From contig JAUHZT010000001.1 of NCBI GenBank assembly GCA_030425905.1, positions 17,572 through 81,571 on the forward strand: a stretch of 64,000 nucleotides of DNA, in the 5' to 3' direction. Position numbers and translations under genes: made by a program. The DNA is from Gammaproteobacteria bacterium (GTDB lineage: Bacteria; Pseudomonadota; Gammaproteobacteria; Steroidobacterales; Woeseiaceae). A model generated the notes under the pieces. That model was not told where the DNA came from and did not search any database. It was given only the letters and a program-made list of their open reading frames with translations. This document shows, piece after piece, positions 34,062 to 59,170 of this stretch (position 1 is its first letter; every line of letters begins with the position of its first letter).

Positions 34062-34385
34062 TCAACCCGTGATTTCAATGGCAGACTTGATGTCGCTGAC
34101 GTAGATCCATCCTGCGGATGATTGCCCCGTCTTACCGTGTTCGCGAATAATCGCCACCGCCTCGGCGGTCTGGGTTTCGGTTTCGCAGACCAGCTCAAGC
34201 TTCACTTCGGTCACCACTTTCTGACCAATCTCCACAGAGTAGTGTTGCTCTTTGCTGTCCAATGATTTGAGCAATCCTTGCACGTCAATGACTGTCAGGT
34301 TCTTAAATCCCGCATTGGTGAGCTCACTGACGACATCCGCCACACGACTTCGATGTATGTAGGTTTTGACTTCACTCAGGCTCAC
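34062..34385 (-). CDS. P-II (GlnB)-like small protein coupled to czcA, copy 1
   Basis: GTG at 34385 forms a GTGA overlap with the czcA stop. (V)SLSEVKTYIHRSRVADVVSEL...LTVIDVQG... follows a P-II-like beta-alpha-beta pattern. Clear paralogue of 48378-48701. Confidence 0.75.
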   Translation of the reverse strand: MSLSEVKTYIHRSRVADVVSELTNAGFKNLTVIDVQGLLKSLDSKEQHYSVEIGQKVVTEVKLELVCETETQTAEAVAIIREHGKTGQSSAGWIYVSDIKSAIEITG

Positions 34386-39921: not shown

Positions 39922-41861
39922 TTAACTGCGCAGCAGCCGCAAGCCACTTGCGATAACTACAAACTCACTGATTTCGTGAACGAGCACCGCAATGGGTAGC
40001 GACAAGGCACCCGTGAGGGCGGTGAGAGCCAACACGCCGATCACAACAATCGATAAGGCGATGTTATGGCGAATGACACGCCAGGTGCGTTGGCTAAACT
40101 GCATCAGGTAGGGAAGTTTGGATAAGTCATCCGCCATAAAGGCAACGTCGGCGGTTTCCAGAGCGACATCAGAACCCGCCACTCCCATGGCGATCCCGAC
40201 GTGGGCGGCCGCCAGCGCGGGCGCGTCATTGACGCCATCGCCCACCATAGCGACCGGGCCGTATTCGCGGCTCAACGCCTCGATGGCTCGACTCTTTTCG
40301 TCGGGCGTCAACTCGGCACGAACCTCATCAACACCAGCTTTGGCACCGATGGCATTGCCGGCCAATCGGTTGTCGCCGGTGAGCATGATGACGTGTTCCA
40401 TACCGGCCGTTTTTAGGGCATTGACGGCTGCCTGCGCACTCGAACGAATCGCATCAGCAATTGCGATGATGCCCATGATCCGCGATGCGTTGCCGACCAG
40501 CACCACGGTGTTGCCCTCGCCTTGCAATTTCTCAATGTGAGCCAAAAGGACCGGCAGGTCGACGCGCGCTGGGTTGGTCGTGAATTCGCCGCCCAATGCA
40601 GAAAACAGATCCGGACTACCGATGTATTGCAACTCACCATCGACGTCACCCCTGATCCCGGCGCCGGTGAGTGACTGCACATCGTCTGCCGCAGCCACTG
40701 GTACGTTCGCCGCATCGGCAGCCGCGACGACCGCCTGGGCCAGTGGGTGTGCCGAACGCGCCTCGAGCGCCGCAGCGACTCGCAATAGTTCGTTGGTGCT
40801 GGTTCCCTCCGTTGGCTCAAAGTGCGTGACCACCGGAACCCCGCGGGTCAAGGTGCCGGTCTTGTCCATGGCTACCACACGAATCTTGGCCAGGCGTTCG
40901 AGATGCACGCCGCCTTTGATCAACACGCCCTGGCGACCGGCGGTACCGATAGCAGCCACCAATGCGATGGGGATCGAGATCACCAACGCGCAGGGTGCCG
41001 CTGCGACGATGAATACCGTGGCACGGCTTAACCATTCGGCCCAACCGAAGCCCAGTAGCCCGGGTACAAGGACAATGAGAATTCCGGTCGCGAGCACGAT
41101 CGGACTGTAACGACGACCGAAGCGTTCAATGAAACGCTGCGTTTGGGCTTTACTGCCTTGCGCTTCTTCGACCAGTTCGATAATGCGAGCGAGCGTATTG
41201 TCCGCAGCGGTTTTGGTTGCCACCACAGTCAATGCCCCTTCGCCGTTGAGCGTTGCAGCGAAGACCGTGTCACCCTCGGCTTTCTCAACGGGGATCGACT
41301 CGCCAGTGACAGGCGCTTGGTTGACGTTCGAATTGCCCTCGACTATTTCACCGTCTGTTGGGATCGCTTCGCCGGGACGCACGATGAAGCGATCGCCCAC
41401 AAACAACTCCTCAATCGGTACGTTCACCTCTTGGCCGTCGCGAAGCGCTGAGGCGGTTTGGGCGCCAAATCCATCAGCGCGCGGATTGCGCCACGCGCAC
41501 GCTCCTCCGTGTAACTTTCTGCCGCCTCCGAGATGGAGTACAGGAACACCAGCATGGCGGCTTCGCCCCACTGGCCCAAGAGGCCTGCGACAATCGCCGC
41601 AACGCTCATTAAGAGCTCGATGCCGATCTCGCGCTCTTTGATTAGTTCTTCGAGCGCCTCGCGGCCGAAGAACCAGCCGCCGATCAACACAGCCGCAACA
41701 TAAATAACTGTCTGCACCGTCGCGCCGACGCCCAGCTGGCCGGCGACAAACCCGAGCAACAGCAACACCCCGGATATGAACGACGTCACCACGGGCGGAT
41801 TGCGCCACGGTGCCGGGACGGCCTTGGACGGGTCCGTTGTGGCGCAGGTATCGGCCGTCAT
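39922..41861 (-). pseudogene. P1B-type heavy-metal ATPase (no N-terminal CxxC domain, APC in TM6) interrupted by a -1 frameshift
   Basis: The N-terminal 134 codons read in the 41424-41861 frame (...RALMDLAPK). The rest reads in the 39922-41808 frame (TASALRDGQEVNVPIEE...). The join needs one extra A in the AAA run (ttt at 41457-41459 on the plus strand). Motifs TGES, DKTGTLT and GDGVNDAP are present. Confidence 0.8.
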
Positions 41862-42259
41862 ACGGCCTCGGTTTTCAGCGCATTCGTCAGTACGCCGACA
41901 CGGCAGCGGCCGGCCTCTCGATACGCGAGACGCTTTTGAAAACGCCTGCGATCAGCAGCGTAGTCCCCAGCAGGATCTGGAAGCGTGGCAATCCATCCAA
42001 ACAGGGTTTGCAAATGTTCAGGGCCTGCGACCAGGCGGTGGTAAACCCAGCGCCCCTCTTTTTCAGCGTCCATAAGCCCCGTCTGGCGCAGTATTTTGAG
42101 ATGACGCGACAACTTGTACTGCGGTTCGAGCAGACTATCAACGAATTCACACAGGCAAGCCTCTTCGCCTGTCGCCGCCAGTAACTGCACGATACGCAAG
42201 CGGGTTCGGTCACTGAGCGCACCAAAGGTGTCTTCTATCGGTATTTCAATTATTTGCAT
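41858..42259 (-). CDS. ArsR/SmtB-family metalloregulator
   Basis: ALSDRTRLRIVQLL...ACLCEFVDSL (CxC in helix 3). ATGA overlap with the ATPase start at 41858-41861. Confidence 0.85.
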   Translation of the reverse strand: MQIIEIPIEDTFGALSDRTRLRIVQLLAATGEEACLCEFVDSLLEPQYKLSRHLKILRQTGLMDAEKEGRWVYHRLVAGPEHLQTLFGWIATLPDPAGDYAADRRRFQKRLAYREAGRCRVGVLTNALKTEAV

Positions 42260-42350
42260 ACTTGCAGTATCGTGCAACTATTAAGAAGATACAAGTCCTG
42301 AAATCGTGATGCCGATCACGTAATCGGCGTCCCGATCCCGATATGAAGAC

Positions 42351-42687: not shown

Positions 42688-43263
42688 TTACGGGTCATGC
42701 GGTACGGGTTCATCGGCCACATCGTTATCTTGAACCTGCGTTTCGCTAGAAATCGGTCGCCCGTCGGTGCCGTAGCTGACTACCTCCCGGAAGAGTCGCT
42801 CGCCCGTTTGCTGCTCTGCTCGCAAATGGGCGAGACCACTAACCTTGTCGGGCTTCTCCACAAGCAACGCGGCGATCGACTGAGCCGGTACGTGTCCTTC
42901 AAGCCAATAGCCACCCGCGACTGCGGTGTGACAGGCAGAGAACTCGCGAGGCACACCGAGGTCAGCCTGCGTTTTTGTAACGGATCGTGTTAGCGCAACA
43001 CCGACCTTGAGACCCTCTTGCTGGAGATGTCTCACCCAGGGTCGGTAGCATGTACAGGACGCAGTGGCATACACAACGACGTCCGCGTCCTCGGGTGCGG
43101 TGACCGGGTCGTGGCGGATGACCGCAACCGCCCAAAAGATCATAAAGAAAGCGATGCCGGCGAGACTCAATGCTGGCTTAACGGGCTTCCTGGAGCCACC
43201 TCGCACCCACGCAAAAAAACTCGATCGCTTCGGCTGAGACTTTCGTTTTCGTCGTCTCCTCAT
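42688..43263 (-). CDS. DUF411 (CopG-like) metal-binding protein, membrane-anchored variant
   Basis: Basic N-terminus plus a TM (LSLAGIAFFMIFWAVAVI). ...ATASCTCYRPW... and ...FSACHTAVAGGYWLEGHVPA match the other DUF411 copy. Confidence 0.75.
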   Translation of the reverse strand: MRRRRKRKSQPKRSSFFAWVRGGSRKPVKPALSLAGIAFFMIFWAVAVIRHDPVTAPEDADVVVYATASCTCYRPWVRHLQQEGLKVGVALTRSVTKTQADLGVPREFSACHTAVAGGYWLEGHVPAQSIAALLVEKPDKVSGLAHLRAEQQTGERLFREVVSYGTDGRPISSETQVQDNDVADEPVPHDP

Positions 43264-43358: not shown

Positions 43359-44042
43359 TCAGTCGGGCTCCAAGCTCTTTTCCGAGTCGAGGCAGACGTT
43401 AGCCCGCAGGCAACCCGCGTCGGTCAGAAAAGACCCGTCAGCGAGCTCGCGGTACTGCTTCTTCATGCGAGGAAAACGACTGTGGGGTTGCGATTGCAGT
43501 GCGCCCTCCTCGTCGCGCGGTACGTAGACGCTAAAGACACGCCGCCCGTCCTCGTCAAAGAATGCGGCCTGATGGGTCTCGCCATTGCGACCGTCGGTTG
43601 ACAGCAATTAAATGGCGGCCAAACGGTCGACATTTAGGTGGCCACCGTAGGGACTATCGGGCGCATCGAAATTGAAGTAGCCGCGTTCGGCATTACCTTC
43701 TGGAACCGGGCCGAACATCTCGAAGACGCTGTCCGAGGACAGAGCAATCACCAGGGCATCCTCCCATTTCGTTAACGCCTTCCAGACGTTGTCGAATTCA
43801 GCCATGGCCACTGGGGTTTGCAAATCCGCAGGCAACCCGTTAACCACGGCGGCCTCGCTGAGACCAGTCGTTTTCGCGATCTGCACGGGCGAGGCCTTGG
43901 ATGACTCCGCCAACGCCGATTGGACCATCTGCCGCTGCTCCGAGGACGCGCACAATTGGTTGGATTCCGCGTTCGCAGTTACGAATGCCGACAACACGAT
44001 GCCATTGATCGCTGCGACGGCTAATCGGGAACGGTTTATCAT
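43359..44042 (-). pseudogene. ChuX/HutX-like (haem-utilisation type) protein with signal peptide, split by an in-frame TAA
   Basis: The 43608-44042 ORF ends ...GGHLNVDRLAAI-TAA (stop at 43608-43610). The next codon in the same frame continues LLSTDGRNGETHQAAFFDEDGRRVFSVYVPRD. The family call is from memory and is tentative. Confidence 0.5.
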
Positions 44043-44065: not shown

Positions 44066-46537
44066 CTACCCACTGAAAGACGGTTCCGCCTGAGCGCCAC
44101 GACCCTTCTGCGATGGCGTGTGATCGTCAGGCACCTTGGGCGACCGGAACGCCAACAGCCGCAGGGCGTTGAACACCACCAACACGGTCGAACCTTCGTG
44201 CATCAGAACCGCGACCCCTATGCTCAGTCCGAAAAGAGTCGAGGGCACCAGAACAGCCACCATGCCGAGGCTGAACCAGAGGTTTTGGCGAATGATGCGA
44301 CTGCTGGCGCGGCTTAATCCGACGGCGAACGGCAGGTGGCGGAGCTCATCCGCCATGAGTGCGACGTCCGCCGTCTCCAACGCGACGTCGGAACCCGCCG
44401 CTCCCATGGCAATGCCGACGGTCGCGTTGGCCATAGCGGGCGCATCGTTAACGCCATCCCCGACCATGGCCACGGCGGATTCTTCGCGGAGTTTGCGAAT
44501 CGTCTCAACCTTGTCCGCTGGCATAAGGTCGCCGTGCGCCTCGGTCAAGCCGACGTCTCTTGCTACAGCGTCCGCCACCTTCTGATTATCGCCGGAGATC
44601 ATGATCATGCGCCGTATCCCGAGTTTGGTCAGGTGTTCAATCACGATGCGCGCTGCCGATCGGGGCGTATCCATCAGCCCCAGGACACCGAGGTAATCGG
44701 CGCCCCGCCGCACGATCATGGTGGTGCGTCCCGCCGACTCGAGTTCCTCGACGACCATACGAAGCGAATCGGGCAATTCGGGCCCGTCCACCTCATTGAA
44801 CAAGTCGTCTTTGCCGATGTGAACGACGTCGTTATCGATCGTCGCTGTAACACCGCGACCAGTGATGCTCTGCAAATCAGTCGCTATCATTGCGGATGTG
44901 TCGTCGATGTGCTCAGAGCCATCCCGTACAATGGCTGCCGCCAACGGATGATCGCTCAATGTCTCGACCGCGATCGCTACGCGAAGCAATTCAGATTTCG
45001 TGACACCCTCCGTCGGCTTAATGTCGGTCAGCTTAGGTTCGCCCTCGGTCAATGTGCCCGTCTTGTCAAACGCGATCGATCGTAGCCGCCCCAGGTGCTC
45101 AAGCGGGCTGCCACCCTTGATGAGTACACCGCCGCGCGCGGCGCGTGCGATGCCGCTCAGGACGGCACTGGGCGTCGCGATCGCGAGTGCGCAGGGGCTT
45201 GCGGCAACCAACAGCGCAAACGTGCGGTAAAAGCTATCGCTCATCGATTGATCAATGAAAAAGCCAACCAGCAAAGTCACCACCGCGCCAAACAGAACAG
45301 TGGGAACGAAGATCCTCTCAAAACGATCAGTGAACTGCTGAGTCGGCGACTGATTGGTTTCTGCCTCGTGAACCATGTTCACGACCCGCGCGAGCGTAGA
45401 ATCAGCGCTGACTTTCGTGATGTACACGTGCAGTCCGCCGCTGCCATTTACCGTCCCCGCGAATACCCGGCTCGCTGCATCGACCGAATTGGGATCTTCC
45501 GCCGCTTCCTCGGTATTCGGAACAGAATGCTTGTCCACCGGTACGCTTTCGCCCGTAATCGGTGCCTGATTGACGCTGCTTGCGCCCTTGATGACGAAAC
45601 CGTCTGCCGGCAAGCGCTCGTTGGGTCGAACAAGCACTATCTCCCCGACGGCCAACTCTTCGACCGGAACATCTTCTACGCGGTCGTCTCGCACACGCGA
45701 GGCGGTTTTGGGAGCGAGATCGGCCAGCGACTCGATGGCCCGCTTGGCGCGCCCCATGGCATAACTCTCTAGGGCATGACCAAGACTGAACAGGAACAAT
45801 AACAGGGCGCCTTCCGCCCATTCACCCAGGAATGCCGCGCCAATTGCGGCGACCAGCATGAGGGTATCGATTTCAAAATGGCCGCCGCGCAGGTTCGCTA
45901 TTGCTTCTCGCAGCGTAAACCAACCGCCGAAAAAGTACGCGGCTACCAGCAATGTCTGTGGCGCCCATTTCGATACCTCAGAAAAGGCGTCGAGCGACCA
46001 ACCGGCCAGCAACGTGGCCCCGCACAACGCGACAAACACGAGTTCCGTGTTCTTTCCGAACACGGTTCCGTGCGCGTGCTCGGATTCTCCGGGTTCACTT
46101 CCCGCACCAACGAGATCGTCAAGGTGCCGGCGAAGCGCTCCTTCACCGGTCTGCTCCCGATCAAACTCGATGCGCACCTGGCCATCCGGTGCGACAATGG
46201 CCTCCAGTACTCCGGCGGCCGATGCAAGTTGATTGCCAAGACGTCTTGCCCGCGAAGCCGGCAACGCGTCTATATTCAGGAACAGGTGGCCGTACTTCGC
46301 TTGCAGCCGGGCGCCTGCTCGATTTGCGAATTGACGCAGCTCCTGAACGGAGAATTCCGATGAATCGACGTGCACGCACAGTCGCAACGGATCTCCCTGC
46401 ACGCGTTCAATCAGGTGTACTCTCTCAACACCAGTCCGGGCCGATATTTGATCGCGCAGCCGCTGAAGACAGGCATCGCCTTCTTCGTCCACATCGGGTA
46501 GCAATAATTCCAGGTCAAGCTGTGTCTTTGTCGTCAT
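44066..46537 (-). CDS. P1B-type heavy-metal ATPase with SPC motif (Co/Zn/Cd, CzcP-like class)
   Basis: 823 aa. Motifs ITGESVPV, LLVAASPCALAIATP, AFDKTGTLT and GDGVNDAPA. The ~170-aa N-terminal extension has no CxxC. Confidence 0.92.
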   Translation of the reverse strand: MTTKTQLDLELLLPDVDEEGDACLQRLRDQISARTGVERVHLIERVQGDPLRLCVHVDSSEFSVQELRQFANRAGARLQAKYGHLFLNIDALPASRARRLGNQLASAAGVLEAIVAPDGQVRIEFDREQTGEGALRRHLDDLVGAGSEPGESEHAHGTVFGKNTELVFVALCGATLLAGWSLDAFSEVSKWAPQTLLVAAYFFGGWFTLREAIANLRGGHFEIDTLMLVAAIGAAFLGEWAEGALLLFLFSLGHALESYAMGRAKRAIESLADLAPKTASRVRDDRVEDVPVEELAVGEIVLVRPNERLPADGFVIKGASSVNQAPITGESVPVDKHSVPNTEEAAEDPNSVDAASRVFAGTVNGSGGLHVYITKVSADSTLARVVNMVHEAETNQSPTQQFTDRFERIFVPTVLFGAVVTLLVGFFIDQSMSDSFYRTFALLVAASPCALAIATPSAVLSGIARAARGGVLIKGGSPLEHLGRLRSIAFDKTGTLTEGEPKLTDIKPTEGVTKSELLRVAIAVETLSDHPLAAAIVRDGSEHIDDTSAMIATDLQSITGRGVTATIDNDVVHIGKDDLFNEVDGPELPDSLRMVVEELESAGRTTMIVRRGADYLGVLGLMDTPRSAARIVIEHLTKLGIRRMIMISGDNQKVADAVARDVGLTEAHGDLMPADKVETIRKLREESAVAMVGDGVNDAPAMANATVGIAMGAAGSDVALETADVALMADELRHLPFAVGLSRASSRIIRQNLWFSLGMVAVLVPSTLFGLSIGVAVLMHEGSTVLVVFNALRLLAFRSPKVPDDHTPSQKGRGAQAEPSFSG

Positions 46538-46586: not shown

Positions 46587-47009
46587 CTACAATTCATGTG
46601 CACAAGCGCCTTGATCCCCTGCCGCGTGGTGTTTCACCGTGACCACACTACCAGGCGGTGGGATCGCGTCGAAATCAAGAAAATAAGGCTTCCTCGTGTG
46701 CCGCGGTCGAATCCGTTGCCGGGTCGTCCGGCACTCAATACCCTCGCCGTCCGGCAAGGTGATGGCCACGTCAACGTGACCGCCGATGGGACCTTTGGTC
46801 ACCGGATCGCCGACAACCTCACCCCACAGCTGGATTCCTTGATCATCTCGCCAAAAATGAGCGGAGGTAACACGACCGTCACTGGCCGGCAATGTTTGAA
46901 TTTCGACGCCGGGGTCACTGATGTACTTGGGAATCCACGCACACGACGACATACCGAGTACGCCGAGCCCGAAAGACACCAAACCGGTGAATCGCTTAAC
47001 GCGCATCAC
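46587..47009 (-). CDS. Lipoprotein of unknown function, paralogue B
   Basis: MMRVKRFTGLVSFGLGVLGMSSC signal/lipobox. Aligns with 47877-48341 (shared FW.D..G..L.GEV and GGHVD.A.T.PD). C-terminal KHHAAGDQGACAHEL. Confidence 0.65.
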   Translation of the reverse strand: MMRVKRFTGLVSFGLGVLGMSSCAWIPKYISDPGVEIQTLPASDGRVTSAHFWRDDQGIQLWGEVVGDPVTKGPIGGHVDVAITLPDGEGIECRTTRQRIRPRHTRKPYFLDFDAIPPPGSVVTVKHHAAGDQGACAHEL

Positions 47010-47074
47010 ATCTCCTTAATCTTCCTCGCCGCGCTGGAAAGACGCTTCCTTCGCGAACACAATTGCCATCGGAA

Positions 47075-47884
47075 CTACCGTCGCGATTCCGCGTTTCGTT
47101 GCTCGACGTGCGCATGGGCTTCGCGGGCATCCAGTTCCCGGGTTGAATTGCCAGTACGGACGACGTAACGCGCTGTGCCACCGTGCTGGATAAATATTGG
47201 CACCACCGATGGTTCGATAATCAATCGGCAGACTTGCTCGTCGCCCAGGTAGGGAAATTGGCAATGAATGAGCGTACAGGCGTGCGCGCCGAGCGATTTT
47301 CGTACCACATCCATGAGTGCACGCTCGAAGCCATCGATATTTTTGTGTCTTAATGTTTGACAGTCTGCGCCAATGCCAATGACGTCACCGTTGTCGTCAA
47401 CCCCGATGATCAAGCTGCCGCCACGATGATTCATGAGTCCGGCTATTGATTTGGCAATGACATTTTCCAGTGCTTTATTGGTACATCGCTCTTTGAGATC
47501 CCAACGCAGCGTTGACTTAAATTCCAGTCGTTCGTTTTCGCCTAAGGCCACGAGACTTGGTAAGTTTAAGTTCAGTTCGTGCTCGAGCCACTGCACCCGA
47601 TCCTGCGACGACTTCAAGGCAGTGGCGTAGCGCCCAAACAGTAATCCGAAAGTAACTCCAATGAGCGCGAACGCGGCGCTCATTGGAATAAATTCAAGCC
47701 AAGCGGCAATCCGCACGCGCGCTTCAACAAACGACCAGATCGACTCGGCGGGGCTTGCCAACAGGTCATTAAATTCCGCGTAGAAAACGACCGTCATCAA
47801 AGGGTGCAGGAATAACACGCCGAGGATCGCGCCCACGGCGGCTCGTGGTAGCAGGTCACGATTTTGTCGAATTGAGCTATTCAT
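47075..47884 (-). CDS. Membrane-anchored AlbA_2 (Schlafen-type putative DNA-binding) domain protein
   Basis: Start MNSSIRQNRDLLPR at 47884 (8-nt overlap with the upstream stop). Two hydrophobic helices. Then ERLEFKSTL...HRGGSLIIGVDDNGDVIGI...ARYVVRTGNSTRELDAREA, the AlbA_2 signature. Confidence 0.75.
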   Translation of the reverse strand: MNSSIRQNRDLLPRAAVGAILGVLFLHPLMTVVFYAEFNDLLASPAESIWSFVEARVRIAAWLEFIPMSAAFALIGVTFGLLFGRYATALKSSQDRVQWLEHELNLNLPSLVALGENERLEFKSTLRWDLKERCTNKALENVIAKSIAGLMNHRGGSLIIGVDDNGDVIGIGADCQTLRHKNIDGFERALMDVVRKSLGAHACTLIHCQFPYLGDEQVCRLIIEPSVVPIFIQHGGTARYVVRTGNSTRELDAREAHAHVEQRNAESRR

Positions 47885-48341
47885 CTGTTTGATTCGAACA
47901 GCCATCGTGATTAACATCGGTCGCGTGGTACGCCACCCGTACTCGGCTTCCGCGCGGCGGCAGGGCAACGAATGCGTGCGAAAAGTCGCTATCGGCGTGC
48001 TGATTCTCATGGTATATCGGTGCAAGCGTGCAAACCGTGCTCGAACGATCCGGCACGGTAGTAGCAATATCGACATGACCACCTGGCAAAGTTTGCCCAG
48101 ATAGCGCGGGCAGCACTTCGCCGCGCAACGTCAAACCGTCGCGATCGGTCCAGAAACCGACCGACCGGAGTCGTGCCACCTCGCTTGACGCCGATTCAAT
48201 AACAACGCCCGGCTCATGGATCCTGGTAGGAACGATTGAGCAAGCAATTAGAAACGGCATCCCAACTACCATGAGAAAGCGAACGCTTTTGAACGCTGTC
48301 ACTGACTTACCCTCCTCCACGTTGTCCGCGAATACCTGCAT
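47877..48341 (-). CDS. Lipoprotein of unknown function, paralogue A
   Basis: ...VRFLMVVGMPFLIAC lipobox; the exact start is uncertain. Paralogous to 46587-47009. C-terminal YHATDVNHDGC. Confidence 0.6.
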   Translation of the reverse strand: MQVFADNVEEGKSVTAFKSVRFLMVVGMPFLIACSIVPTRIHEPGVVIESASSEVARLRSVGFWTDRDGLTLRGEVLPALSGQTLPGGHVDIATTVPDRSSTVCTLAPIYHENQHADSDFSHAFVALPPRGSRVRVAYHATDVNHDGCSNQTDE

Positions 48342-48377: not shown

Positions 48378-48701
48378 CTATGCGGTGATCTCAATGGCCG
48401 ACTGGATCTCCGTGATATAGATCCATCCCGCGGACGGACTGCCGGTTTTGGCGTTATTCCGTATTGCATGGACGGCCTCCGCAACCCTCGTTTCGTTGTC
48501 GCAAACAAGCTCAAGCTTGACTTCGTTGGTCACTTTTTGGCCGATTTCCACCGAGTAGTGGTTTTCCTCGTTGCTAAGGGTCCTCAGTATTCCTTGCACG
48601 TCGACCACGGTAATATTATGAAAATCTGATTTGTTGAGTGCGCTGACCACGTCAGCGACGCGATTGCGGTGTACAAACGCTTTGACTTCTTTCATGTTCA
48701 T
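48378..48701 (-). CDS. P-II (GlnB)-like small protein following czcA, copy 2
   Basis: MNMKEVKAFVHRNRVADVVSALNKSDFHNITVVDVQG... Roughly two-thirds of residues are shared with copy 1 by eye. Confidence 0.8.
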   Translation of the reverse strand: MNMKEVKAFVHRNRVADVVSALNKSDFHNITVVDVQGILRTLSNEENHYSVEIGQKVTNEVKLELVCDNETRVAEAVHAIRNNAKTGSPSAGWIYITEIQSAIEITA

Positions 48702-48836: not shown

Positions 48837-51800
48837 TCATTCTGAAGCCACTCCACTTCGCCGCTCTGCGCGCGACTCCATCCACTCATAGATAACCGGC
48901 AACAAAACCAAGGTCAGCAGCGTCGAAGTGATCAGTCCACCCACCACGACCGAGGCGAGTGGTCGTTGCGTCTCAGCACCAACGCCGCTCGACAGGAGCA
49001 TTGGCACCAATCCGAGAATCGCAACGCTCGCTGTCATCAGGACGGGTCGTAAGCGCAGTTCAGCACCCTCGCGGACCGCCTCTTCGACCGAGCGGCCCTT
49101 TTCTCGCAGTTCGTTGATGAAGCTCACGAGCACAATACCGTTCAGCATCGCCACCCCAAACACCGCAATAAAGCCGATGGCAGAGGGCACCGAGACATAT
49201 TGCCCGGTGACGAACAGGGCCAGCAGTCCGCCAATCGTTGCAAAAGGTACGTTCGCAATGATGAGGGTCGCGTACTTCACTGAGTTGAATGCGGTGTACA
49301 GCAATACGAAGATGAAAAAGATCGTTAGCGGTACAATGATCGACAGGCGTGCCAATGCACGTTGCTGGTTCTCAAACGCACCACCCCACTCGATCCAATA
49401 ACCCGGCGGCAGATCCATCTGAGATTCGATGGCTGCATTGGCGTCCTGGACAAAGCTGTCTACGTCGCGACCGCGCACATCCATCTGGATGACGGCGTAA
49501 CGCTGCAATTGCTCGCGACGGACGAAGGAGTAGCCCTCCGCCACCGTCACATCAGCGACCGCAGAGAGCGGCACGATGGCACCGCCGCTTGTTTTTAGCG
49601 GAATGCGCTGAATTGACTGTACCGACGCCTTCGATTCATCGTTCAGGCGGGCCGTAATGTCGAAACGCCGCACACCATCAATTAGTGTCGAAACCGGCTC
49701 ATTGCCGATGCCGGTACGCACCACTGACAACACGTCGTCCGCGTTCAGGCCAAAGCGCGCGAGCTGGTCGCGCTTCACCTGAATTCGAATTTGCGGTTTG
49801 CCGACGTTGGCTTCGAGTGACAGATCCGCGACCCCTTCGACGCCGGCGATCACATCCTTCACTTCTTCGCTCAAGCGATCGAGTTCGGTCAGTTCTTCGC
49901 CGTAGATTTTGGCGGCAAGGGTTGCGCGTACGCCGGAGATGAGTTCCTCGACCCGCATCTGGATCGGCTGGGTAAACGCGACCACGGCGGTCGGCACCAC
50001 GACTTCCAGTTCCTCGCGCATGGCTTCCGCCAATTCTTCGATGTCGCGATCCCCGGGCCATTCATCTTCGGGATTGAGTTCCGTATAAATCTCCATGTAG
50101 TTCACATCAGCGGTTTCGCCCTTTTCGGCACGACCAATCATCGCCACCGTCGTTTTCACCTCCGGAAACTCGGACAAGGCGTTTTCAATGTCGATGGATA
50201 TCTTGATCGATTGATCGAGGGATGCCGACGGAATCGACGTCACCCGCCACATGATCGAGCCTTCCTGCAGCTGCGGCATGAATTCTTTTCCGAGGAAGGG
50301 AAACAAGGCGAGACTCGCGACGAGCAAACCGACAGCGCTGCCGACCACAATCTTCTTGTTCGCGAGTGACCATGACAGGAACGGCAGGTAGCGTGTTTTG
50401 ATCACGCGCACCAACCAGGTGTCACGCTCTTCCTTGGGTTTAAGAATCAAGGCAGCCAGCACCGGGATCAGTGTGAGCGTCAAAACGAGCGACCCTGCCA
50501 TGGCAAAGCTGATGTTGAACGCCATCGGTTTGAAGAGTTTGCCTTCCAGGCCTTCAAGCGCAAACAGCGGCAGGAACACGACGATGATGATCATGATGGC
50601 GAAGGCGATCGGGTTCGCGACTTCCCGGGCTGCGGTGAGTACCGCGGCGCTTCTATCGACCGTCTCACCGGCTTCCTTGCGTTCCGCCATGATGCGAAAC
50701 GCGTTTTCCACCATCACCACGGCTCCGTCAACCATCATGCCGATGCCAACTGCGAGCCCGGCCAGGGACATCAGGTTGGCCGATAAGCCCGCCTCGCCCA
50801 TGAAGATAAACGCGATCAACATGGCCAGCGGCAATGCCGCAATGACCACGACCGCAGAACGAATTTCTCCGAGAAACAAGAACAGCACAATCGCAACCAG
50901 AATCGAGCCTTCGATCAATGCGCTGGTTGCAGTACTCACGGCTTTGTCGACCAAATCCGTGCGGTCGTACACAGGGCGCAAGGCGACCCCTTCCGGCAAA
51001 GACTGATCGAGTATCTCGACCTTCTCCTTTACCGAATCGACCACGGCCGCAGCGTTCTCGCCCAATCGCGAGAGCGCCATACCCAGAACGACCTCTTTGC
51101 CGTCACGGGTGACCGCGCCGAAGCGCAGTGCGCCATTCTGTTCGATGCGCGCGATATCCCGAAGGTAAACTGGCGTACCGTCTTCGACCTTGACGACCAT
51201 ATCACCGATGTCGTGCTCGTTCTCGACGAGGCCCAAACCCCGCACCAAGTACTGCTCAGCACCTAAATTCACGTACTGGCCCCCGACCTGCCGGTTGTTA
51301 GCCTCAATCACCTCCATCACTTCGGTGAAGGTCAGGTCGTACTTGATGAGACTTAAGGGGTCCATCACCACCTGAAACTGGCGCTCTTGCCCGCCCCAGG
51401 AGGTAACGTCATCGACGCCCGGGGCGGTGCGTAAGATCAGGCGCACGCTCCAGTCCTGCAGAGTGCGTAGATCCATGTCGCTGATGTCGCGGTTCAGTTC
51501 CTCATCGGCCCGTTCCAGCGTGTACCAAAATACCTGGCCCAAACCGGAGGTGTTCGGCCCCATTTCGGGGGTACCATAACCCTCTGGAATGCGGTCACCG
51601 ACCTCCTGAAGCCGTTCACCGACTAGGCGACGGGCAAAGTAGATGTCCATGTCGTCCTCAAAGTAGACGGCCACGTACGATAGGCCGAACAGGCTCACCG
51701 AACGGATCTGCTGTACTTTGGGCAGCCCCGCCATGCCGGACTCCACTGGGAACGTGAGCAATTGCTCCACGTCCTCGGCGGCCAAGCCCGGGGATTCGGT

Positions 51801-51950
51801 GTAAATGTTGACCTGCGCCGGCGTCACGTCCGGGAACGCGTCAATCGGCACCGTCACCACGGCACGCCAACCGAGCGCGGCGACCACGCCGAACAGGATC
51901 AGCACCAGAAATTTGTAGCGCAGTGAGGCTTCTACGAGTTTCTCTAACAT
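48837..51950 (-). CDS. czcA: Heavy-metal efflux RND pump, CzcA/CusA family, copy 2
   Basis: 1037 aa, colinear with copy 1 along its whole length. Confidence 0.93.
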   Translation of the reverse strand: MLEKLVEASLRYKFLVLILFGVVAALGWRAVVTVPIDAFPDVTPAQVNIYTESPGLAAEDVEQLLTFPVESGMAGLPKVQQIRSVSLFGLSYVAVYFEDDMDIYFARRLVGERLQEVGDRIPEGYGTPEMGPNTSGLGQVFWYTLERADEELNRDISDMDLRTLQDWSVRLILRTAPGVDDVTSWGGQERQFQVVMDPLSLIKYDLTFTEVMEVIEANNRQVGGQYVNLGAEQYLVRGLGLVENEHDIGDMVVKVEDGTPVYLRDIARIEQNGALRFGAVTRDGKEVVLGMALSRLGENAAAVVDSVKEKVEILDQSLPEGVALRPVYDRTDLVDKAVSTATSALIEGSILVAIVLFLFLGEIRSAVVVIAALPLAMLIAFIFMGEAGLSANLMSLAGLAVGIGMMVDGAVVMVENAFRIMAERKEAGETVDRSAAVLTAAREVANPIAFAIMIIIVVFLPLFALEGLEGKLFKPMAFNISFAMAGSLVLTLTLIPVLAALILKPKEERDTWLVRVIKTRYLPFLSWSLANKKIVVGSAVGLLVASLALFPFLGKEFMPQLQEGSIMWRVTSIPSASLDQSIKISIDIENALSEFPEVKTTVAMIGRAEKGETADVNYMEIYTELNPEDEWPGDRDIEELAEAMREELEVVVPTAVVAFTQPIQMRVEELISGVRATLAAKIYGEELTELDRLSEEVKDVIAGVEGVADLSLEANVGKPQIRIQVKRDQLARFGLNADDVLSVVRTGIGNEPVSTLIDGVRRFDITARLNDESKASVQSIQRIPLKTSGGAIVPLSAVADVTVAEGYSFVRREQLQRYAVIQMDVRGRDVDSFVQDANAAIESQMDLPPGYWIEWGGAFENQQRALARLSIIVPLTIFFIFVLLYTAFNSVKYATLIIANVPFATIGGLLALFVTGQYVSVPSAIGFIAVFGVAMLNGIVLVSFINELREKGRSVEEAVREGAELRLRPVLMTASVAILGLVPMLLSSGVGAETQRPLASVVVGGLITSTLLTLVLLPVIYEWMESRAERRSGVASE

Positions 51951-51959
51951 TGGATTCCC

Positions 51960-53081
51960 CTAGTGCGCGTGGCCTTCGCCAAGCGAAGACTTAAGTAGCA
52001 GTGACTTGAGATGGAACACGCCATCGACGGCAATCTCGTCGCCAACGTTCAAGCCCCCCATGACCACGGTCCAATCGCCCACGGTCGGTCCAGCCTCGAT
52101 GGTCTCCGCATGAAATTCATGACCGTTTTCGAGTTTGAAGACAGTCGGTGATCCCTCGATCATCGTCACCGCGGCGCTCGGCACCGCGAGTATGGGTTCC
52201 CTCGTTCCGGTCACAATCTCGGTCTCGACAAACTGGCCGGGATGCAGTCGGTCATCGGCATTGTCGACCTCGATACGCAAGCCTTGCGTACGGGTGGTCT
52301 CGTCCAAGCGGTGATGACGCTGAATGACCGTACCCTTGAGCCACGTGATGCCATCAAGGCTCACGCGCGCGGTAGCACCGTCATCGATGTCGGGCATGCC
52401 GTTCGGCACCGTCTGCGCCTCCACCCACATCACCGATTCATCGCTGATGTCGATCAGCACACGGCCGGGTTCAATCAATTCACCGACGATGAAGTCGTCC
52501 TGCAAGACCGTACCGGCCTGCGGCGCCAACAACTCGAACGCGCCTGTTGCTTTGCTGGCATCACCGGATCGGGCGAGTGCCGCCGCTTGCGCCTCGGTTA
52601 TGCCGTAGGCGATCACCTTCGCAAGGGCTTGCTGCTGTGCAACCTGTGCTTCGGTGTAGCGGCGCTCGGAGACGGTTTCTCGGCCCAGGCTCTTAACCCG
52701 CTGCCATTCGCGATCCGCGACAATGAGCATACCTTGCGCCTCGGCCATCTCGACGCTCGACAGTGTCACCAGGCGTTGACCTGCCTCCACGCTATCGCCA
52801 AGCGTGACGTGACGCGCTGCAACCTGCGCCGTGATTCGGGGGGTTACGCGCGAGGAACGGTACGCGTTGATGACCACCTCGCCGGGTACGCGAATAGTCT
52901 CTTTCAGCGCCCGTGGCGCTACGGCATCCAGTACAATGCCAGCGCCGCGTTGTTCTTCCGCGGAAAGCTCAATGGAGCCGCCTTCCTCCTCGCCGTGATC
53001 ATCGTGGTCATCTTCCTGGGCATGCACCGGGGCGATCAGTGCGAAACACAGACACACCGCCCAAAGCTTCAGGGTGTTCAT
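51960..53081 (-). CDS. czcB: RND membrane fusion protein, CzcB family, copy 2
   Basis: Start MNTLKLWAVCLCFALIAPVHA preceded by GGAGAACGTAACG. Alternative ATG at 53117 with an ATGA overlap. A His/Asp-rich stretch QEDDHDDHGEEEGG follows the signal peptide. Confidence 0.88.
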   Translation of the reverse strand: MNTLKLWAVCLCFALIAPVHAQEDDHDDHGEEEGGSIELSAEEQRGAGIVLDAVAPRALKETIRVPGEVVINAYRSSRVTPRITAQVAARHVTLGDSVEAGQRLVTLSSVEMAEAQGMLIVADREWQRVKSLGRETVSERRYTEAQVAQQQALAKVIAYGITEAQAAALARSGDASKATGAFELLAPQAGTVLQDDFIVGELIEPGRVLIDISDESVMWVEAQTVPNGMPDIDDGATARVSLDGITWLKGTVIQRHHRLDETTRTQGLRIEVDNADDRLHPGQFVETEIVTGTREPILAVPSAAVTMIEGSPTVFKLENGHEFHAETIEAGPTVGDWTVVMGGLNVGDEIAVDGVFHLKSLLLKSSLGEGHAH

Positions 53082-53113
53082 CGTTACGTTCTCCGTTGTT
53101 GGTTTGGGGGTGT

Positions 53114-54379
53114 TCATTGGTAGCTACCTCGGCCCAGCCAGGCATCCACCTGTCCCGAGGCCCACAGCCATTCGAACCAGGCGCGCCACAGGGCCTCGCG
53201 GAGGTCTAGGGCGCTTTCTTGCACGTCCAGCGTCGCGGTCAGTTGCACCAGGTAGTCAGTCGTACTGAGCTCACCAGCTTCCCACAGTCGTTGCAGCTGC
53301 TCGGTCTGCCGCATAAGGCTGGCCTCGCCGATCTGTTGCCAGTCACCCCAGGCACCGCGGGAAAGTTCGTATCGCTCAGCTGCGCTAATCAATCGGGCAT
53401 AAGCGCGTTGCATGACGTCATTGGCGATTTGTTGGGCCTGGCTGCGCTCAGCCAAGGCGGCCGTCACTTCGTGGCTGAAGCTATTGCGCACGAACAGCGG
53501 AATGGTCACGTTGAGCCCGATCAGGGTCTCGCCGTCCTCGTCTCCGCCGGCGAGACTTAATGTTGGGTCCGGTCGCCGTTCGCGGCGCCGCAGTTCGACC
53601 ACTGCATCGGCCGTCGCGACTTCCCGCTGAGCCGCGAGCACTTCCGGCAGATCCACCACCAACGATTGCGGATCGTCAGCGCTTTTTGGCAGCGACGGCA
53701 AAGCATCAGGCAGCGATGGCCATTGGGCACTGGCGGATGATCGAGGCGTTAAACTGCGCACTGCCTGTCGCGCTTCGGCGAGTCCGGCGGCAGCGGTTGC
53801 TTTTTGAATTCGCGCATCGGCGGATGCCAGCCGTGCCAGGTCAAGTTCCACCTGGGCAAGATCGCCGGCGTCGAAGCGGCGTTGCGCCAGGCCCGCAAAC
53901 CGGTCCATGAAATCTCGACGAGCTTGCGCGAGCGTTTCACGCTCCACCCCGGTCTGATGCTGGGCGAGACCATCCAAGAGCTCCACGGTGACGGACCAGC
54001 GTGCGGCAAGGTACTCTGCCTCGACCACCAATCGATCAGATTCAGCTACAGCCGTTCGGGCATTGCGTTTGCCGCCCCAGTCAAGCGTCTGGCTGATACC
54101 CAACGCCCGCGTTCTGTCGGCCGCGTTTTCAGCCTCAAGGCTCAGTTCCGGGTTGTACAGTGGGCGAGAGGCGGCATCCCGAAACGCGCCGCTGGCCTCA
54201 AGCGCGGCGCGCGCAGCTTGCACGCGCGGATTTGCCTCAACCACAGTTTGCACAAATTGGATGAGTGCGGGGTCGGCACCCAGAGCGCCAGGTGTGGGCG
54301 ACTCATCAGCTGCTGCCACCCATGGACTTATTATCAGGCCGCCAACAATAAGGGCGAGCCCAGAAATGCGAATGTGCAT
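53114..54379 (-). CDS. czcC: Outer membrane factor, CzcC/TolC family, copy 2
   Basis: 421 aa with signal peptide MHIRISGLALIVGGLIISPWVAA. Colinear with copy 1. Confidence 0.85.
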   Translation of the reverse strand: MHIRISGLALIVGGLIISPWVAAADESPTPGALGADPALIQFVQTVVEANPRVQAARAALEASGAFRDAASRPLYNPELSLEAENAADRTRALGISQTLDWGGKRNARTAVAESDRLVVEAEYLAARWSVTVELLDGLAQHQTGVERETLAQARRDFMDRFAGLAQRRFDAGDLAQVELDLARLASADARIQKATAAAGLAEARQAVRSLTPRSSASAQWPSLPDALPSLPKSADDPQSLVVDLPEVLAAQREVATADAVVELRRRERRPDPTLSLAGGDEDGETLIGLNVTIPLFVRNSFSHEVTAALAERSQAQQIANDVMQRAYARLISAAERYELSRGAWGDWQQIGEASLMRQTEQLQRLWEAGELSTTDYLVQLTATLDVQESALDLREALWRAWFEWLWASGQVDAWLGRGSYQ

Positions 54380-54456: not shown

Positions 54457-54798
54457 TTAGGCGTTGGGGGGAGGCGTCGGAGGAGCTTGCGAAAAGTTGA
54501 GTACAAACTCAGAACGACCGACGGTATGCTCGCTTGCCACAAACGACGTTGTCATTGACGTGAATTGGCCGGTGACGCCGGCCGAGTGGCCGTGACAGCA
54601 GTGCTTGCAATGCTCATCGTCGAGGTCGACGCTTGACGTTTCGTCTTCATGGTCTTCAAGAGAATGGCCGAACTCGCTCTCATGGGCTGCCACATCGTCA
54701 GCGTGCGGCAAGCCGCCGTCGATCAGCAGATCCGCGGCACTCTCCACGCTCGTGAAAAGCACAGAAATCGAGACCAATATGTACCAAAAGGACTTCAT
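54457..54798 (-). CDS. Small secreted His/Cys/acidic-rich protein in the czcI position
   Basis: 113 aa with signal peptide MKSFWYILVSISVLFTSVESA. Motifs HESEFGHSLEDHEDE and HCKHCCHGH. Lies directly upstream of czcC copy 2. Confidence 0.6.
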   Translation of the reverse strand: MKSFWYILVSISVLFTSVESAADLLIDGGLPHADDVAAHESEFGHSLEDHEDETSSVDLDDEHCKHCCHGHSAGVTGQFTSMTTSFVASEHTVGRSEFVLNFSQAPPTPPPNA

Positions 54799-54976: not shown

Positions 54977-56275
54977 TCAATCGCCGCGCCTCTGCGCCAG
55001 GTAGTAGCGCTCGAAGCCAAAAATCGCGACGATCGACGAAACGGCGATCATTACGATCAGTGGATCCGCGCCGCCCTTGATGACTAAGAATGCGACCAGC
55101 GCCAGCGCATCGAGCACGATTGCCGTCATCAGGACCCAGGCGCTCGCATTGACGTCAGCTTTGAGGTGACGCCAAACACCCCAGTGTATGGCGATATCCA
55201 TGACAAGATAGTAAATCGCGCCAAGCGATGCGATCCGGCTCAGGTCGAAAAATGCTGCAAGAAAAGCAGCCAGCACGACCGTATACACCAGCGTGTGTTT
55301 CTGGATGCCGCCCGGCATCCCGAAGTGGCGATGCGGAATGATGTCCATATTGGTCAGCATCGCAAGCATGCGCGAGACGGCGAATACGCTCGCCAGCAAC
55401 CCTGAGCTGGTGGCTACGATCGCTATCGCGACCGTGAACCACACACCATAGTCGCCCATCGCCGGTCGTGCCGCTTCTGCCAATGAATAGTCCTTGGCCC
55501 TGACAATCTCTTCGACGGTCAAGGTTGATCCGACGCCAAAGGCGACTAGCATGTAGACAACGACGCAGATTCCGAGCGAGATCACGATCGCCCGTCCGAC
55601 GTTTTTGTGCGGGTCGACAACCTCGTCGCCGCTATTCGTTATGGTCGTAAATCCCTTGTAAGCGAGAATCGCCAATGCGACGCCGGCGAGAAACCCGGTC
55701 GCCGAAGTATCATCAATCACGCCACCAGTTGCCGGCTCGAAAGACCAGCCGGCGGCCCACAGGGCTGTTGTCGCGAAACCAAGTATTCCGAGGATCTTGA
55801 CGACGGCAGTAACCTTGGAAACCGCGCCGATCAGCCGATTGCCGGCGATGTTTATAAGGAACGCGACAACGATCAGCCCGACCGCAAGCGCCGAGACCAG
55901 CCAGCCGAGGTTTTTGGCGTCGAATAATTGCAGCGTGTAGGTACCGAAAGTTCGGGCGACCAGGCTTTCGTTGATGATCATCGAAAATGCCATCAGCAGC
56001 GCGCTGGCGCCGGTCATTATGGTCTTGCCGTAGGCCTTCTGCAGAATCATCGCGATGCCGCCAGCCGACGGGTACTTGCTGGTTACCTTTATGTAGGTGT
56101 ACGCGCTGAATCCGCTGATGATGGCCGCCAGCAGGAACGCCGCCGGAAACAGTGGACCGGCGTATTCCGCGACCTGACCGGTTAGTGCAAAAATACCGGC
56201 GCCAATCATCACGCCGGTACCCATCGCAACTGTCGCCGTCAGTGACAAGCTGCCCAATTTATAGTTATCGCTCAT
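54977..56275 (-). CDS. APC-superfamily amino acid/polyamine permease
   Basis: 432 aa with about 12 TM segments. N-terminal GTGVMIGAGIFALTG is typical of APC permeases. Confidence 0.85.
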   Translation of the reverse strand: MSDNYKLGSLSLTATVAMGTGVMIGAGIFALTGQVAEYAGPLFPAAFLLAAIISGFSAYTYIKVTSKYPSAGGIAMILQKAYGKTIMTGASALLMAFSMIINESLVARTFGTYTLQLFDAKNLGWLVSALAVGLIVVAFLINIAGNRLIGAVSKVTAVVKILGILGFATTALWAAGWSFEPATGGVIDDTSATGFLAGVALAILAYKGFTTITNSGDEVVDPHKNVGRAIVISLGICVVVYMLVAFGVGSTLTVEEIVRAKDYSLAEAARPAMGDYGVWFTVAIAIVATSSGLLASVFAVSRMLAMLTNMDIIPHRHFGMPGGIQKHTLVYTVVLAAFLAAFFDLSRIASLGAIYYLVMDIAIHWGVWRHLKADVNASAWVLMTAIVLDALALVAFLVIKGGADPLIVMIAVSSIVAIFGFERYYLAQRRGD

Positions 56276-58526: not shown

Positions 58527-58918
58527 GATTCGCTCCTTTCAAGGTCGTGCAGTATCGGGCAGTCGGGACGTTTGTCGCCGTCGCAGCGATCGGCCAGGTG
58601 CTGCAAGGTATCGACCATCGCCTGCAGTTCGCCGATCTTTTCCCGTAGTTCGTCGAGGTGTGTCTCGACGAGTCGCTTGACATCGGCACTGCTACGGCCC
58701 TGGTCCTGCCAAAGCGCGAGTAGCGCCGAGATCTTCGGCACAGAAAAACCAAGGCGGCGAGCCCGCCGGATAAAGCTCAATGTGTGCAGATCGTCCCGGT
58801 CAAACACCCGGTAGCCCGAGGCGCTGCGTTTCGACTTGCCGAGCAACCCGATCTGTTCGTAATAGCGAATGCGTTTCGCGGACACGCCTGTGGCGGCCGC
58901 CGCTTGTCCGATGTTCAT
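58523..58918 (-). CDS. cueR: Cu(I)-responsive MerR-family regulator CueR
   Basis: Start [26 protein letters not shown] at 58918. C-terminal [11 protein letters not shown] is a C-x7-C loop. ATGA overlap with copA. Confidence 0.88.
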
Positions 58919-58964
58919 AGGAATTACCCTCCGTTCACCGTCATCGATTGACGGTAACGGCACG

Positions 58965-58995
58965 ATCCTACACCTTCCCATTATGGGAAGGTCAA
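58965..58995 (-). promoter_or_regulatory. CueR-type promoter/operator: -35 TTGACC, dyad ACCTTCCCAT-A-ATGGGAAGGT, -10 TAGGAT, 19-bp spacer
   Basis: The minus strand reads CTTGACCTTCCCATAATGGGAAGGTGTAGGAT, very close to the E. coli copA promoter architecture as remembered. Drives cueR-copA. Confidence 0.7.
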
Positions 58996-59170
58996 GCTTT
59001 TTTCGATCGCAAACCCGGCGCCCCACGGCCTCGCCACAACAGGAACAAGACCGGAATAACGATCTGAGTCAGTACGGTGGCGCTGATTGGGATATATGTC
59101 CGTACCGGCGCCGTACATCACCTGTCGGTTTCATGTCCGAGCCTAAATTGAGCTTTGCCCTCATAGCGCG

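Follow-up and report, generated by a model that had tools for sequence, protein, structure and literature searches.

A predicted membrane-anchored Schlafen/AlbA_2 protein and a His-rich lipoprotein family in a heavy-metal island of a Woeseiaceae bacterium

Since 2026, bacterial Schlafens have been regarded as phage-defence transfer RNA nucleases (tRNases) equipped with soluble sensor domains, as laid out in two surveys of prokaryotic Schlafens (pSlfns; PMC13056530, PMC13462974). Mutations have proven the motif Ex4(E/D)xK to be the active site in these tRNases (PMC13056530, PMC13462974); RorSlfn5 depends on Mn (PMC13056530), and Cash works with either Mn or Mg (PMC13462974). Fifty-five domain compositions are described, together with 17% of proteins that are listed as 'unannotated fusions' (PMC13056530, PMC13462974), 558 such clusters being given in PMC13056530. 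Here we analyse a stretch of 64,000 nucleotides (nt) from a Woeseiaceae gammaproteobacterium (contig JAUHZT010000001.1), referred to as the window, in which a heavy-metal island carries three tightly linked genes: one for lipoprotein A, one for a protein of 269 amino acids (aa) that joins two predicted transmembrane (TM) helices to a Schlafen/AlbA_2 domain, named TM-AlbA_2 in the following, and one for lipoprotein B. An earlier note, made from this DNA alone, had proposed that the three form one module, either a transmembrane sensor-regulator or a hitch-hiking defence unit. Our comparison with related loci indicates that the locus very probably consists of two independent island components, the membrane protein on one side and the lipoproteins on the other, which happen to be interleaved in the lineage of the window.

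The evidence that separates the two components comes from synteny. Eighty genomic loci with TM-AlbA_2 relatives were fetched, and homologue look-ups plus two plasmid records brought the set to 92 loci (numbered with the prefix L) at the time of the scan. Open reading frames (ORFs) of the fetched loci were called with a GC3-weighted caller, and lipoprotein genes near TM-AlbA_2 were detected with a hidden Markov model (HMM) of the family run over all six-frame ORFs, flanks being taken within 8 kb. Lipoprotein-family ORFs are present in the flanks of four of the 92 loci (the window, L001, L002 and L091) and the pair is absent from the other 88, so that it cannot be called a conserved neighbour of TM-AlbA_2. 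True flanking, with the gene enclosed by lipoprotein genes, is restricted to the window, L001 and the later fetched L098, which represent one lineage at 91-95% identity. At about 70% identity, in L002 and L091, the lipoprotein genes stand in tandem, B type first, immediately after the P-II-like gene and before the ATPase gene, and TM-AlbA_2 is found 4-5 kb further on, beyond the ATPase gene and an NhaA gene. The converse arrangement also exists, as L093, L095, L099 and L102 have the lipoproteins together with czc and ATPase genes and without a TM-AlbA_2 gene nearby.

The closest public sequence, L001, comes from an uncultured Woeseiaceae metagenome-assembled genome whose TM-AlbA_2 protein is 94% identical to that of the window. 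Its DNA is 92% identical, and exactly at the junction of lipoprotein A and TM-AlbA_2 it carries 450 bp without a counterpart in the window (L001:543-992); the 8-nt overlap of these two genes in the window (47877-47884) is therefore a recent accident. The extra segment holds a possible ORF for a 48-aa single-TM peptide, with its start near 614. A miniature inverted-repeat transposable element (MITE) or other repeat as the source of the segment was considered and discarded, as merely short repeats at chance level and no convincing terminal repeats were found in it. The earlier note had itself named lost synteny between homologues and lipoproteins as evidence that would speak against its trio, and outside one lineage that synteny is absent; on this ground and on the junction difference we reject the lipoprotein/TM-AlbA_2/lipoprotein arrangement as a functional unit.

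Within the window itself the description given by the earlier note is largely accurate. ORF analysis recovers the three minus-strand genes and their overlap, as well as the neighbours it had placed around them, a P-II-like gene on one side and an ATPase gene with an SPC motif on the other. From TM-AlbA_2 to lipoprotein B there are 65 nt and from lipoprotein B to the ATPase gene 49 nt, no promoter- or terminator-like site inside the trio exceeds shuffle expectation, and the series czcCBA, P-II, lipoprotein A, TM-AlbA_2, lipoprotein B, ATPase reads as one long transcription unit. Two of the gene starts need comment. Called mechanically, the ORF of the TM-AlbA_2 gene extends to 48082 and that of lipoprotein A covers 47877-48341 (minus strand) with an ATG at 48341; for the latter a GTG at 48302, located 7 nt 3' of the Shine-Dalgarno sequence GGAGGAGGG, is the likelier start. 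From this GTG lipoprotein A reads MTAFKSVRFLMVVGMPFLIAC, a textbook signal peptide with LIAC at its end, and lipoprotein B reads MRVKRFTGLVSFGLGVLGMSSC. At the level of sequence pattern both lipoboxes pointed out before, LIAC and MSSC, follow a positively charged n-region and an h-region. The two lipoproteins are indeed paralogues, sharing 34% identity over 131 residues (BLASTP, E 2e-20) and every one of the common motifs that had been quoted for them.

Concerning the middle protein, its C-terminal part matches the Pfam family SLFN_AlbA_2 (PF04326) with an E-value of 1.2e-12 and 48.8 bits (cutoff 25.3), over profile positions 1-117 of 118. The AlphaFold2 model (mean predicted local distance difference test score, pLDDT, of 91.7) shows helices at residues 3-41, 49-59 and 62-105, followed by an alpha/beta domain. 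When this C-terminal domain is compared by Foldseek, DIP2311, the DNA-binding/tRNase domain of SAMD9 and the nuclease domains of SLFN5, SLFN11, SLFN12, SLFN13 and SLFN14 are retrieved with probability 1.0, the PDB entries at that level being 3lmm, 7ksp, 9o0d, 5yd0, 7cux and 7zep. Profile and fold thus bear out the AlbA_2/Schlafen domain that the earlier note had recognised. In the profile alignment E116-x4-E121-x-K123 corresponds to the 'ESxSIEFKQ' stretch, and D164 to the 'GVDD', of SLFN11, SLFN13 and SLFN14, and none of the four residues E116, E121, K123 and D164 varies among 110 sequences from several phyla. By motif and fold TM-AlbA_2 is a member of the Schlafen nuclease superfamily, with a predicted complete Ex4ExK...D active site.

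The family is far from rare. A k-mer search returned 197 TM-AlbA_2 homologues, and the best 120 listed are mostly full-length proteins of 260-280 aa, all with PF04326; among 185,579 species-representative genomes there are at least 590 relatives. They are found in Gamma- and Alphaproteobacteria, Gemmatimonadota, Planctomycetota and other groups, and a full-length homologue with 29% identity is located on a plasmid of Pontibacter (Bacteroidota).

The N-terminal part contains two hydrophobic segments with Kyte-Doolittle means, taken over 19 residues, of 2.17 and 2.06, and their conservation over 110 homologues agrees with the two N-terminal helices proposed before. In these 110 sequences H27 is kept in 98, P28 in 109, E37 in 105 and G76 in all 110; F52, R56, M68, F72, A73 and G80 are further conserved hairpin residues, and overall the conservation amounts to about 90-100% of the sequences. 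The conservation of H27-P28, E37, R56, M68 and G76xxxG80 is hence too strong for a mere anchor. Lys and Arg residues are denser before the first helix and after the second than in the loop of about 27 residues between them, and this charge distribution fits an N-in/C-in topology that would place the AlbA_2 domain in the cytoplasm.

The genomic neighbourhood of TM-AlbA_2 depends on the distance to the window protein. Metal or cation genes are present in the flanks of 30 of the 42 loci with at least 40% identity to it (L001-L042) and of 3 of the 38 loci below 40% (L043-L080). The link of the middle gene to metal genes therefore holds among the closer relatives; it is not general, and no neighbour is universal. 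In four phyla the closer relatives stand co-directional beside metal or cation transporters, the partner differing by lineage and usually lying at 4-150 nt: it may be a P1B ATPase, a cation diffusion facilitator (CDF), NhaA, MgtC, a resistance-nodulation-division (RND) pump or an amino-acid permease, a multicopper oxidase in Methylotuvimicrobium buryatense 5G, and DUF411 plus an amino-acid permease in Erythrobacteraceae and Hyphomonadaceae. In the 44 dereplicated loci, the commonest families within three ORFs on either side are P-type ATPases (6), amino-acid permeases (4), DUF411 (4), RND (3), MgtC (3) and NhaA (3). Single loci are instructive as well. In a Methyloprofundus species (L083:7001-8513, AP023240.1) a two-component system is located between a cusCBA-like operon and a multicopper oxidase gene. 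The TM-AlbA_2 gene stands between the cusCBA-like operon and this system and shares 47 nt with its response-regulator gene, which suggests co-transcription with a metal-sensing system. On a Sphingorhabdus plasmid the gene lies within an array of czcBA, DUF190, ATPase and, further on, CDF genes, and on the Pontibacter plasmid directly upstream of RND, TolC and membrane fusion protein (MFP) genes. The Roseibium/Stappia-type clade has a conserved housekeeping array of M20 peptidase, TM-AlbA_2, TauE and leuB, where the TauE gene begins 2 nt after the TM-AlbA_2 stop (L088). Taken as a whole, the gene is probably co-transcribed with cation-transporter operons. It should be noted that the copy of the Sphingorhabdus sp. 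YGSMI21 plasmid NZ_CP022549.1 (L096:8962-9771) has an in-frame stop at the E116 codon, is otherwise intact and is annotated as two coding sequences; the stop could be a sequencing error or a selected inactivation of a costly protein.

The lipoproteins form the second component, and they belong to an undescribed family of His-rich seven-strand beta-sandwiches with a clear genomic address. Protein searches with a k-mer prefilter gave just 9 and 18 matches and a metagenome scan with a narrow alignment 6 loci, while an exhaustive profile search of 1.84 billion representatives yielded 328 relatives at E<=1e-3 and 47 at E<=1e-10; among the 150 relatives listed all are small (80-340 aa), mostly 130-170 aa. 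Lipoprotein A scores 118.6 bits on the family HMM. None of 101 family members has a meaningful match in Pfam or NCBIfam, PADLOC has no family for lipoproteins A and B, and the profile finds no sequence relative in the PDB below E 0.28. The fold was obtained from the AlphaFold2 model of lipoprotein B (pLDDT 91.0). Of the 101 members, 98 have the lipobox Cys and 90 show a lipobox-like pattern; the most conserved positions of the mature part are G63 (101), H78 (100), G77 (98), H128 (90), D80 (84) and H127 (64), and the median His content is 6 per mature chain of 123 residues. In the close subfamily, C93 and a C-terminal HxxC are conserved as well.

The address of the family was read from 11 further contigs. 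In 9 of them the lipoprotein gene, or a tandem pair, adjoins a heavy-metal RND pump gene or its P-II-like partner; the order RND, P-II, lipoprotein is found in 6 of the 11, and a P1B ATPase of 800 aa follows directly downstream in 6. Even the L095 lipoprotein, with merely 25% identity, is encoded 3' of RND and P-II/DUF3240 genes, and that of L094 adjoins a ZrgA/ABC/DUF3299 zinc cluster. The usual order is thus czcCBA, optionally P-II, one or two lipoprotein copies and the P1B ATPase, and the window keeps it save for the inserted TM-AlbA_2 gene. We consider with good confidence that the lipoproteins are accessories of the czc/ATPase pair. They would act as lipid-anchored periplasmic metal-binding partners of czcCBA and the P1B ATPase and may relay metal exported by the ATPase to the RND pump. 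The model for this is CusF, which takes Cu(I) from the ATPase CopA and delivers it to CusB; the likeness is one of analogy, not homology.

Table 1. Positions of the two components and of neighbouring island genes in the window.
Feature	Position	Strand	Description
TM-AlbA_2 protein	47075..47884	(-)	269 aa: N-terminal two-TM hairpin, helical stalk, predicted cytoplasmic Schlafen/AlbA_2 domain
TM helix 1	47780..47842	(-)	residues ~15-35; conserved G18, A19, G22, L26, H27, P28
TM helix 2	47633..47695	(-)	residues ~64-84; conserved M68, F72, A73, G76xxxG80; runs into stalk to ~105
Schlafen/AlbA_2 domain	47132..47539	(-)	residues 116-251; Ex4ExK = E116...E121-x-K123 (47516-47539); third carboxylate D164 in GVDD
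Lipoprotein A	47877..48302	(-)	141 aa from GTG at 48302; signal peptide and LIAC lipobox, then His-rich beta-sandwich domain
Lipoprotein B	46587..47009	(-)	139-140 aa; lipobox GMSSC, His-rich beta-sandwich; nearest to the widespread form of the family
P-II-like gene 3' of czcA	48378..48701	(-)	PF00543, E 9.4e-12
P1B-type ATPase	44066..46537	(-)	823 aa, SPC motif; usual downstream partner of the lipoprotein gene(s), by synteny
czcCBA-like operon 2	48837..54379	(-)	outer-membrane factor (OMF) 53114-54379, MFP 51960-53117, RND 48837-51950; upstream of P-II and lipoproteins
ArsR/SmtB-family regulator	41858-42277		upstream of a P-type ATPase
MerR-family regulator	58523-59026		upstream of a P-type ATPase

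The island around both components holds a methyltransferase gene, a CDF transporter, two MFP/OMF sets, three P-type ATPases, two DUF411 genes, a HutX/ChuX-like gene and an amino-acid permease. The roles in czc operon 2 were assigned by sequence similarity to genes annotated by Pfam as OEP, CzcB and ACR_tran in related loci; its gene order is repeated in L099 and L102, and the outer-membrane gene of L091 lies outside the fetched part. The earlier note had remarked that the island lacks a czcRS-type system. Indeed no two-component system is present in it, but regulators are not lacking: the ArsR/SmtB and MerR genes upstream of P-type ATPases mean that the island has conventional one-component metal regulators.

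Several recurrent elements of the island deserve mention in their own right. Both P-II-like genes of the window (34062-34415 and 48378-48701) lie immediately 3' of a czcA-type RND gene, and genes of this kind (PF00543, also DUF3240 or DUF190) accompany RND genes in L081, L091, L095, L099 and L102, with the L096 copy annotated as DUF190; with a copy in each of the window's czc operons and in the majority of related loci, the P-II-like gene looks like a fixed partner of heavy-metal RND pumps. A HutX/ChuX-like gene, of a haem-utilisation family that is unexpected in a metal-island setting, is kept downstream of the 823-aa ATPase (window 43608-44042, L002:9473-10159, L091:13694-14380). DUF411 (CopG-like) and an APC-family permease recur with TM-AlbA_2 (window 42688-43263, 31779-32291 and 54977-56275; L010-L036, L061 and L086), in the order DUF411, TM-AlbA_2, permease in the islands of Erythrobacteraceae and Hyphomonadaceae. 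Between the OMF gene of operon 2 and the permease, an ORF of 113 aa at 54457-54798 has no Pfam match. Base composition changes along the window: G+C, about 0.61-0.67 at 6-30 kb, is lower in the metal island (30-59 kb), at about 0.54-0.61, and the GC skew is negative throughout the island, consistent with minus-strand genes.

As to what the two components do, we favour, at somewhat better than an even chance, a membrane Schlafen linked to stress and, next to it, separate lipoprotein accessories. TM-AlbA_2 would sit in the inner membrane, its N- and C-terminal ends both cytoplasmic and its two helices linked on the periplasmic side by about 27 residues; a helical stalk of about 20 residues joins the hairpin to the Schlafen-fold domain. 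The hairpin, probably in a dimer, would sense a cue in the membrane or close to it on the periplasmic side (metal, ion or envelope stress), and the stalk would relay this cue and toggle the cytoplasmic domain between an inactive and an active state. The output would most likely be the divalent-metal-dependent cleavage of tRNA or another RNA and, less likely, nucleic-acid binding only. As characterised Schlafen nucleases need Mn or Mg, it is also conceivable that the cytoplasmic metal load acts directly on the activity. That the protein is a stress-gated nuclease in particular is a more tentative proposal, and one to which we give rather less than even weight.

A number of observations weigh against this picture. 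Metal or cation neighbours are found in about half of the dereplicated lineages only, the contexts are housekeeping or miscellaneous in the clade with less than about 40% identity (Roseibium, Stappia, many Methylococcaceae), and the Pfam tally over three ORFs on either side in the 44 dereplicated loci reveals no universal partner. Metal islands move horizontally as blocks, so the association may be partly hitch-hiking. The Ex4ExK motif is kept in nearly all AlbA_2 domains and is thus no proof by itself of catalysis in the TM-AlbA_2 clade, and an efflux operon would be a puzzling place for a potentially toxic RNase. For the lipoproteins, C93 and C136 are kept in the close subfamily only, and the Foldseek comparison of their fold with the PDB gives generic sandwiches at best (E ~0.03), with no informative structural neighbour.

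Among the alternatives, the one that survives best, though we rate it as unlikely, is that the gene is a hitch-hiking antiphage or abortive gene, a Schlafen tRNase whose two-TM module senses phage at the membrane and which travels as cargo on mobile metal islands. Those bacterial Schlafens that have been characterised are tRNases of phage defence and carry fused sensor modules (PMC13056530, PMC13462974), the catalytic motif of TM-AlbA_2 is intact, and the stop at E116 on the Sphingorhabdus plasmid is what would be expected of a costly protein. Mobile-element or defence genes also occur close by in two loci: a few kb past TM-AlbA_2, at the end of the metal genes, L082 has AbiEi/AbiEii and a MukF/KicB-like gene (L082:9228-12017), and L084 has PRTase-CE, a reverse transcriptase and ArdA (L084:10467-14487). 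These genes may mark the island edges only, and they are consistent with the islands being mobile. Against a defence role, no PADLOC model matches the TM-AlbA_2 protein (best E 0.043), and very few of the 252 neighbour ORFs in the 44 dereplicated loci are matched (MADS components, one kinase, two AriA-like ATPases and one MkoA), which leaves the neighbourhood far under the defence score of 0.5 used in PMC13056530. In addition, no phage record encoding TM-AlbA_2 was found, the gene usually belongs to an array of transporter genes that run in one direction and are spaced 4-150 nt apart, and Roseibium-type genomes have it in a conserved housekeeping context. The defence unit offered as the second option for the trio is weak on these counts.

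A non-catalytic membrane protein that binds nucleic acid, tethering the mRNA or DNA of transporter operons or serving as a general membrane regulator without the lipoproteins, appears improbable as well. Binding of DNA and RNA is known for AlbA_2 domains, nuclease function is missing in several mammalian Schlafens (PMC13462974), and the gene shares operons with a range of unrelated membrane transporters, as would suit a general part in membrane-protein expression. The four catalytic positions, however, are invariant in the 110 sequences, which is hard to explain without catalysis. We know of no precedent for a non-catalytic membrane-localised AlbA_2 binder of this type.

Least of all survives, as highly improbable, the one-component metal sensor of ToxR/CadC type that the earlier note preferred, with the AlbA_2 domain bound to promoter DNA and both lipoproteins as periplasmic co-sensors. 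In its favour speak the membrane tether combined with a fold that binds nucleic acid (structure 7ksp shows the SAMD9 AlbA_2 domain with DNA), the tight spacing of the genes in the window, the lack of a regulator adjacent to czc operon 2 or the 823-aa ATPase and the Methyloprofundus gene abutting a metal two-component system. Against it, TM-AlbA_2 has no helix-turn-helix (HTH) or Trans_reg_C match in Pfam or NCBIfam, its domain order is reversed, it has two TM helices and its short periplasmic loop leaves little surface for a partner, the lipoproteins flank it in one lineage only and elsewhere accompany czc and ATPase genes on their own, the overlap is not kept at 92% DNA identity, and ArsR and MerR regulators are already in the island.

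Returning to the favoured membrane Schlafen, the clade stands apart from the described pSlfns as it is membrane-anchored with a strongly conserved hairpin, is associated with transporter operons in four phyla and is nearly without defence neighbours. The earlier note, which knew of no described membrane-anchored form flanked by duplicated lipoproteins, agrees with the main texts of both 2026 surveys, which name no membrane-anchored form and nowhere use the word 'transmembrane', although their supplementary tables may catalogue the family (PMC13056530, PMC13462974); a literature search combining AlbA_2 with metal resistance gave no paper linking the two. If TM-AlbA_2 is an active nuclease, it would link metal or envelope stress to RNA cleavage and take Schlafen biology past immunity. 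In its boldest form, a rather unlikely one in our judgement, it would be the first non-immune prokaryotic Schlafen, a membrane tRNase or RNase whose hairpin (H27, E37, M68) is the sensor of metal, ion or envelope stress and which throttles translation or processes transporter mRNAs in the service of heavy-metal and cation homeostasis; the lipoproteins would separately represent a new class of periplasmic proteins for Zn/Co/Cd hand-off between CzcP-type ATPases and CzcCBA. The lipoproteins are a second, independent lead, as an unannotated part of czcCBA-P-II-P1B ATPase clusters that may supply the missing periplasmic chaperone role for Zn, Co and Cd as CusF does for copper. The locus therefore points to two real, unstudied components of heavy-metal islands, of which the membrane-anchored Schlafen is the more interesting, and culturable carriers of the latter exist in Hyphomonas jannaschiana VP2, Erythrobacter and Qipengyuania species, Roseibium aggregatum and Methylotuvimicrobium buryatense 5G.

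Compared with known systems, TM-AlbA_2 shares PF04326, the fold, Ex4ExK and the GVDD Asp with the pSlfn nucleases (RorSlfn5, Cash, i.e. Csx15-Schlafen, and SLFN-pAgo), with SLFN11, SLFN13 and SLFN14 and with SAMD9, and like the pSlfns it has a fused non-catalytic module that is a possible sensor. In the pSlfns this module is soluble (HisKinase-like, HTH, Ig-like, DUF262, Csx15 or NACHT) and the context is a defence island, whereas TM-AlbA_2 has an N-terminal two-TM hairpin, a context of cation and metal transporter operons and a nuclease activity predicted from sequence. Like ToxR, CadC and TcpP it would hold a domain that binds nucleic acid on the cytoplasmic side of the inner membrane, with a possible direct link from envelope to cytoplasm. 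Those regulators start with an OmpR-type winged helix, cross the membrane once and carry a folded sensor domain in the periplasm; TM-AlbA_2 begins with two TM helices, has a 27-residue loop and no HTH, and ends in the Schlafen domain. Its gene neighbourhood is not that of the antiphage pSlfn systems described so far, and it shows none of the defining features of ToxR/CadC. Intramembrane-sensing kinases of the LiaS/BceS type come near in layout, with a two-TM hairpin, a very short loop and a long stalk to the output domain, which is DHp/CA in the kinases and Schlafen here. The likeness is architectural only, with no sequence homology, and Foldseek matches of TM-AlbA_2 to the helical regions of HK853 are weak and non-significant (E 0.2-1). 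The lipoproteins, for their part, share no sequence or significant structural similarity with CusF, CzcE, CzcI and CopC/CopK, from which they differ in being lipid-anchored seven-strand sandwiches with putative metal binding; they resemble them in being small, exported, encoded in heavy-metal RND/ATPase clusters and furnished with conserved His residues.

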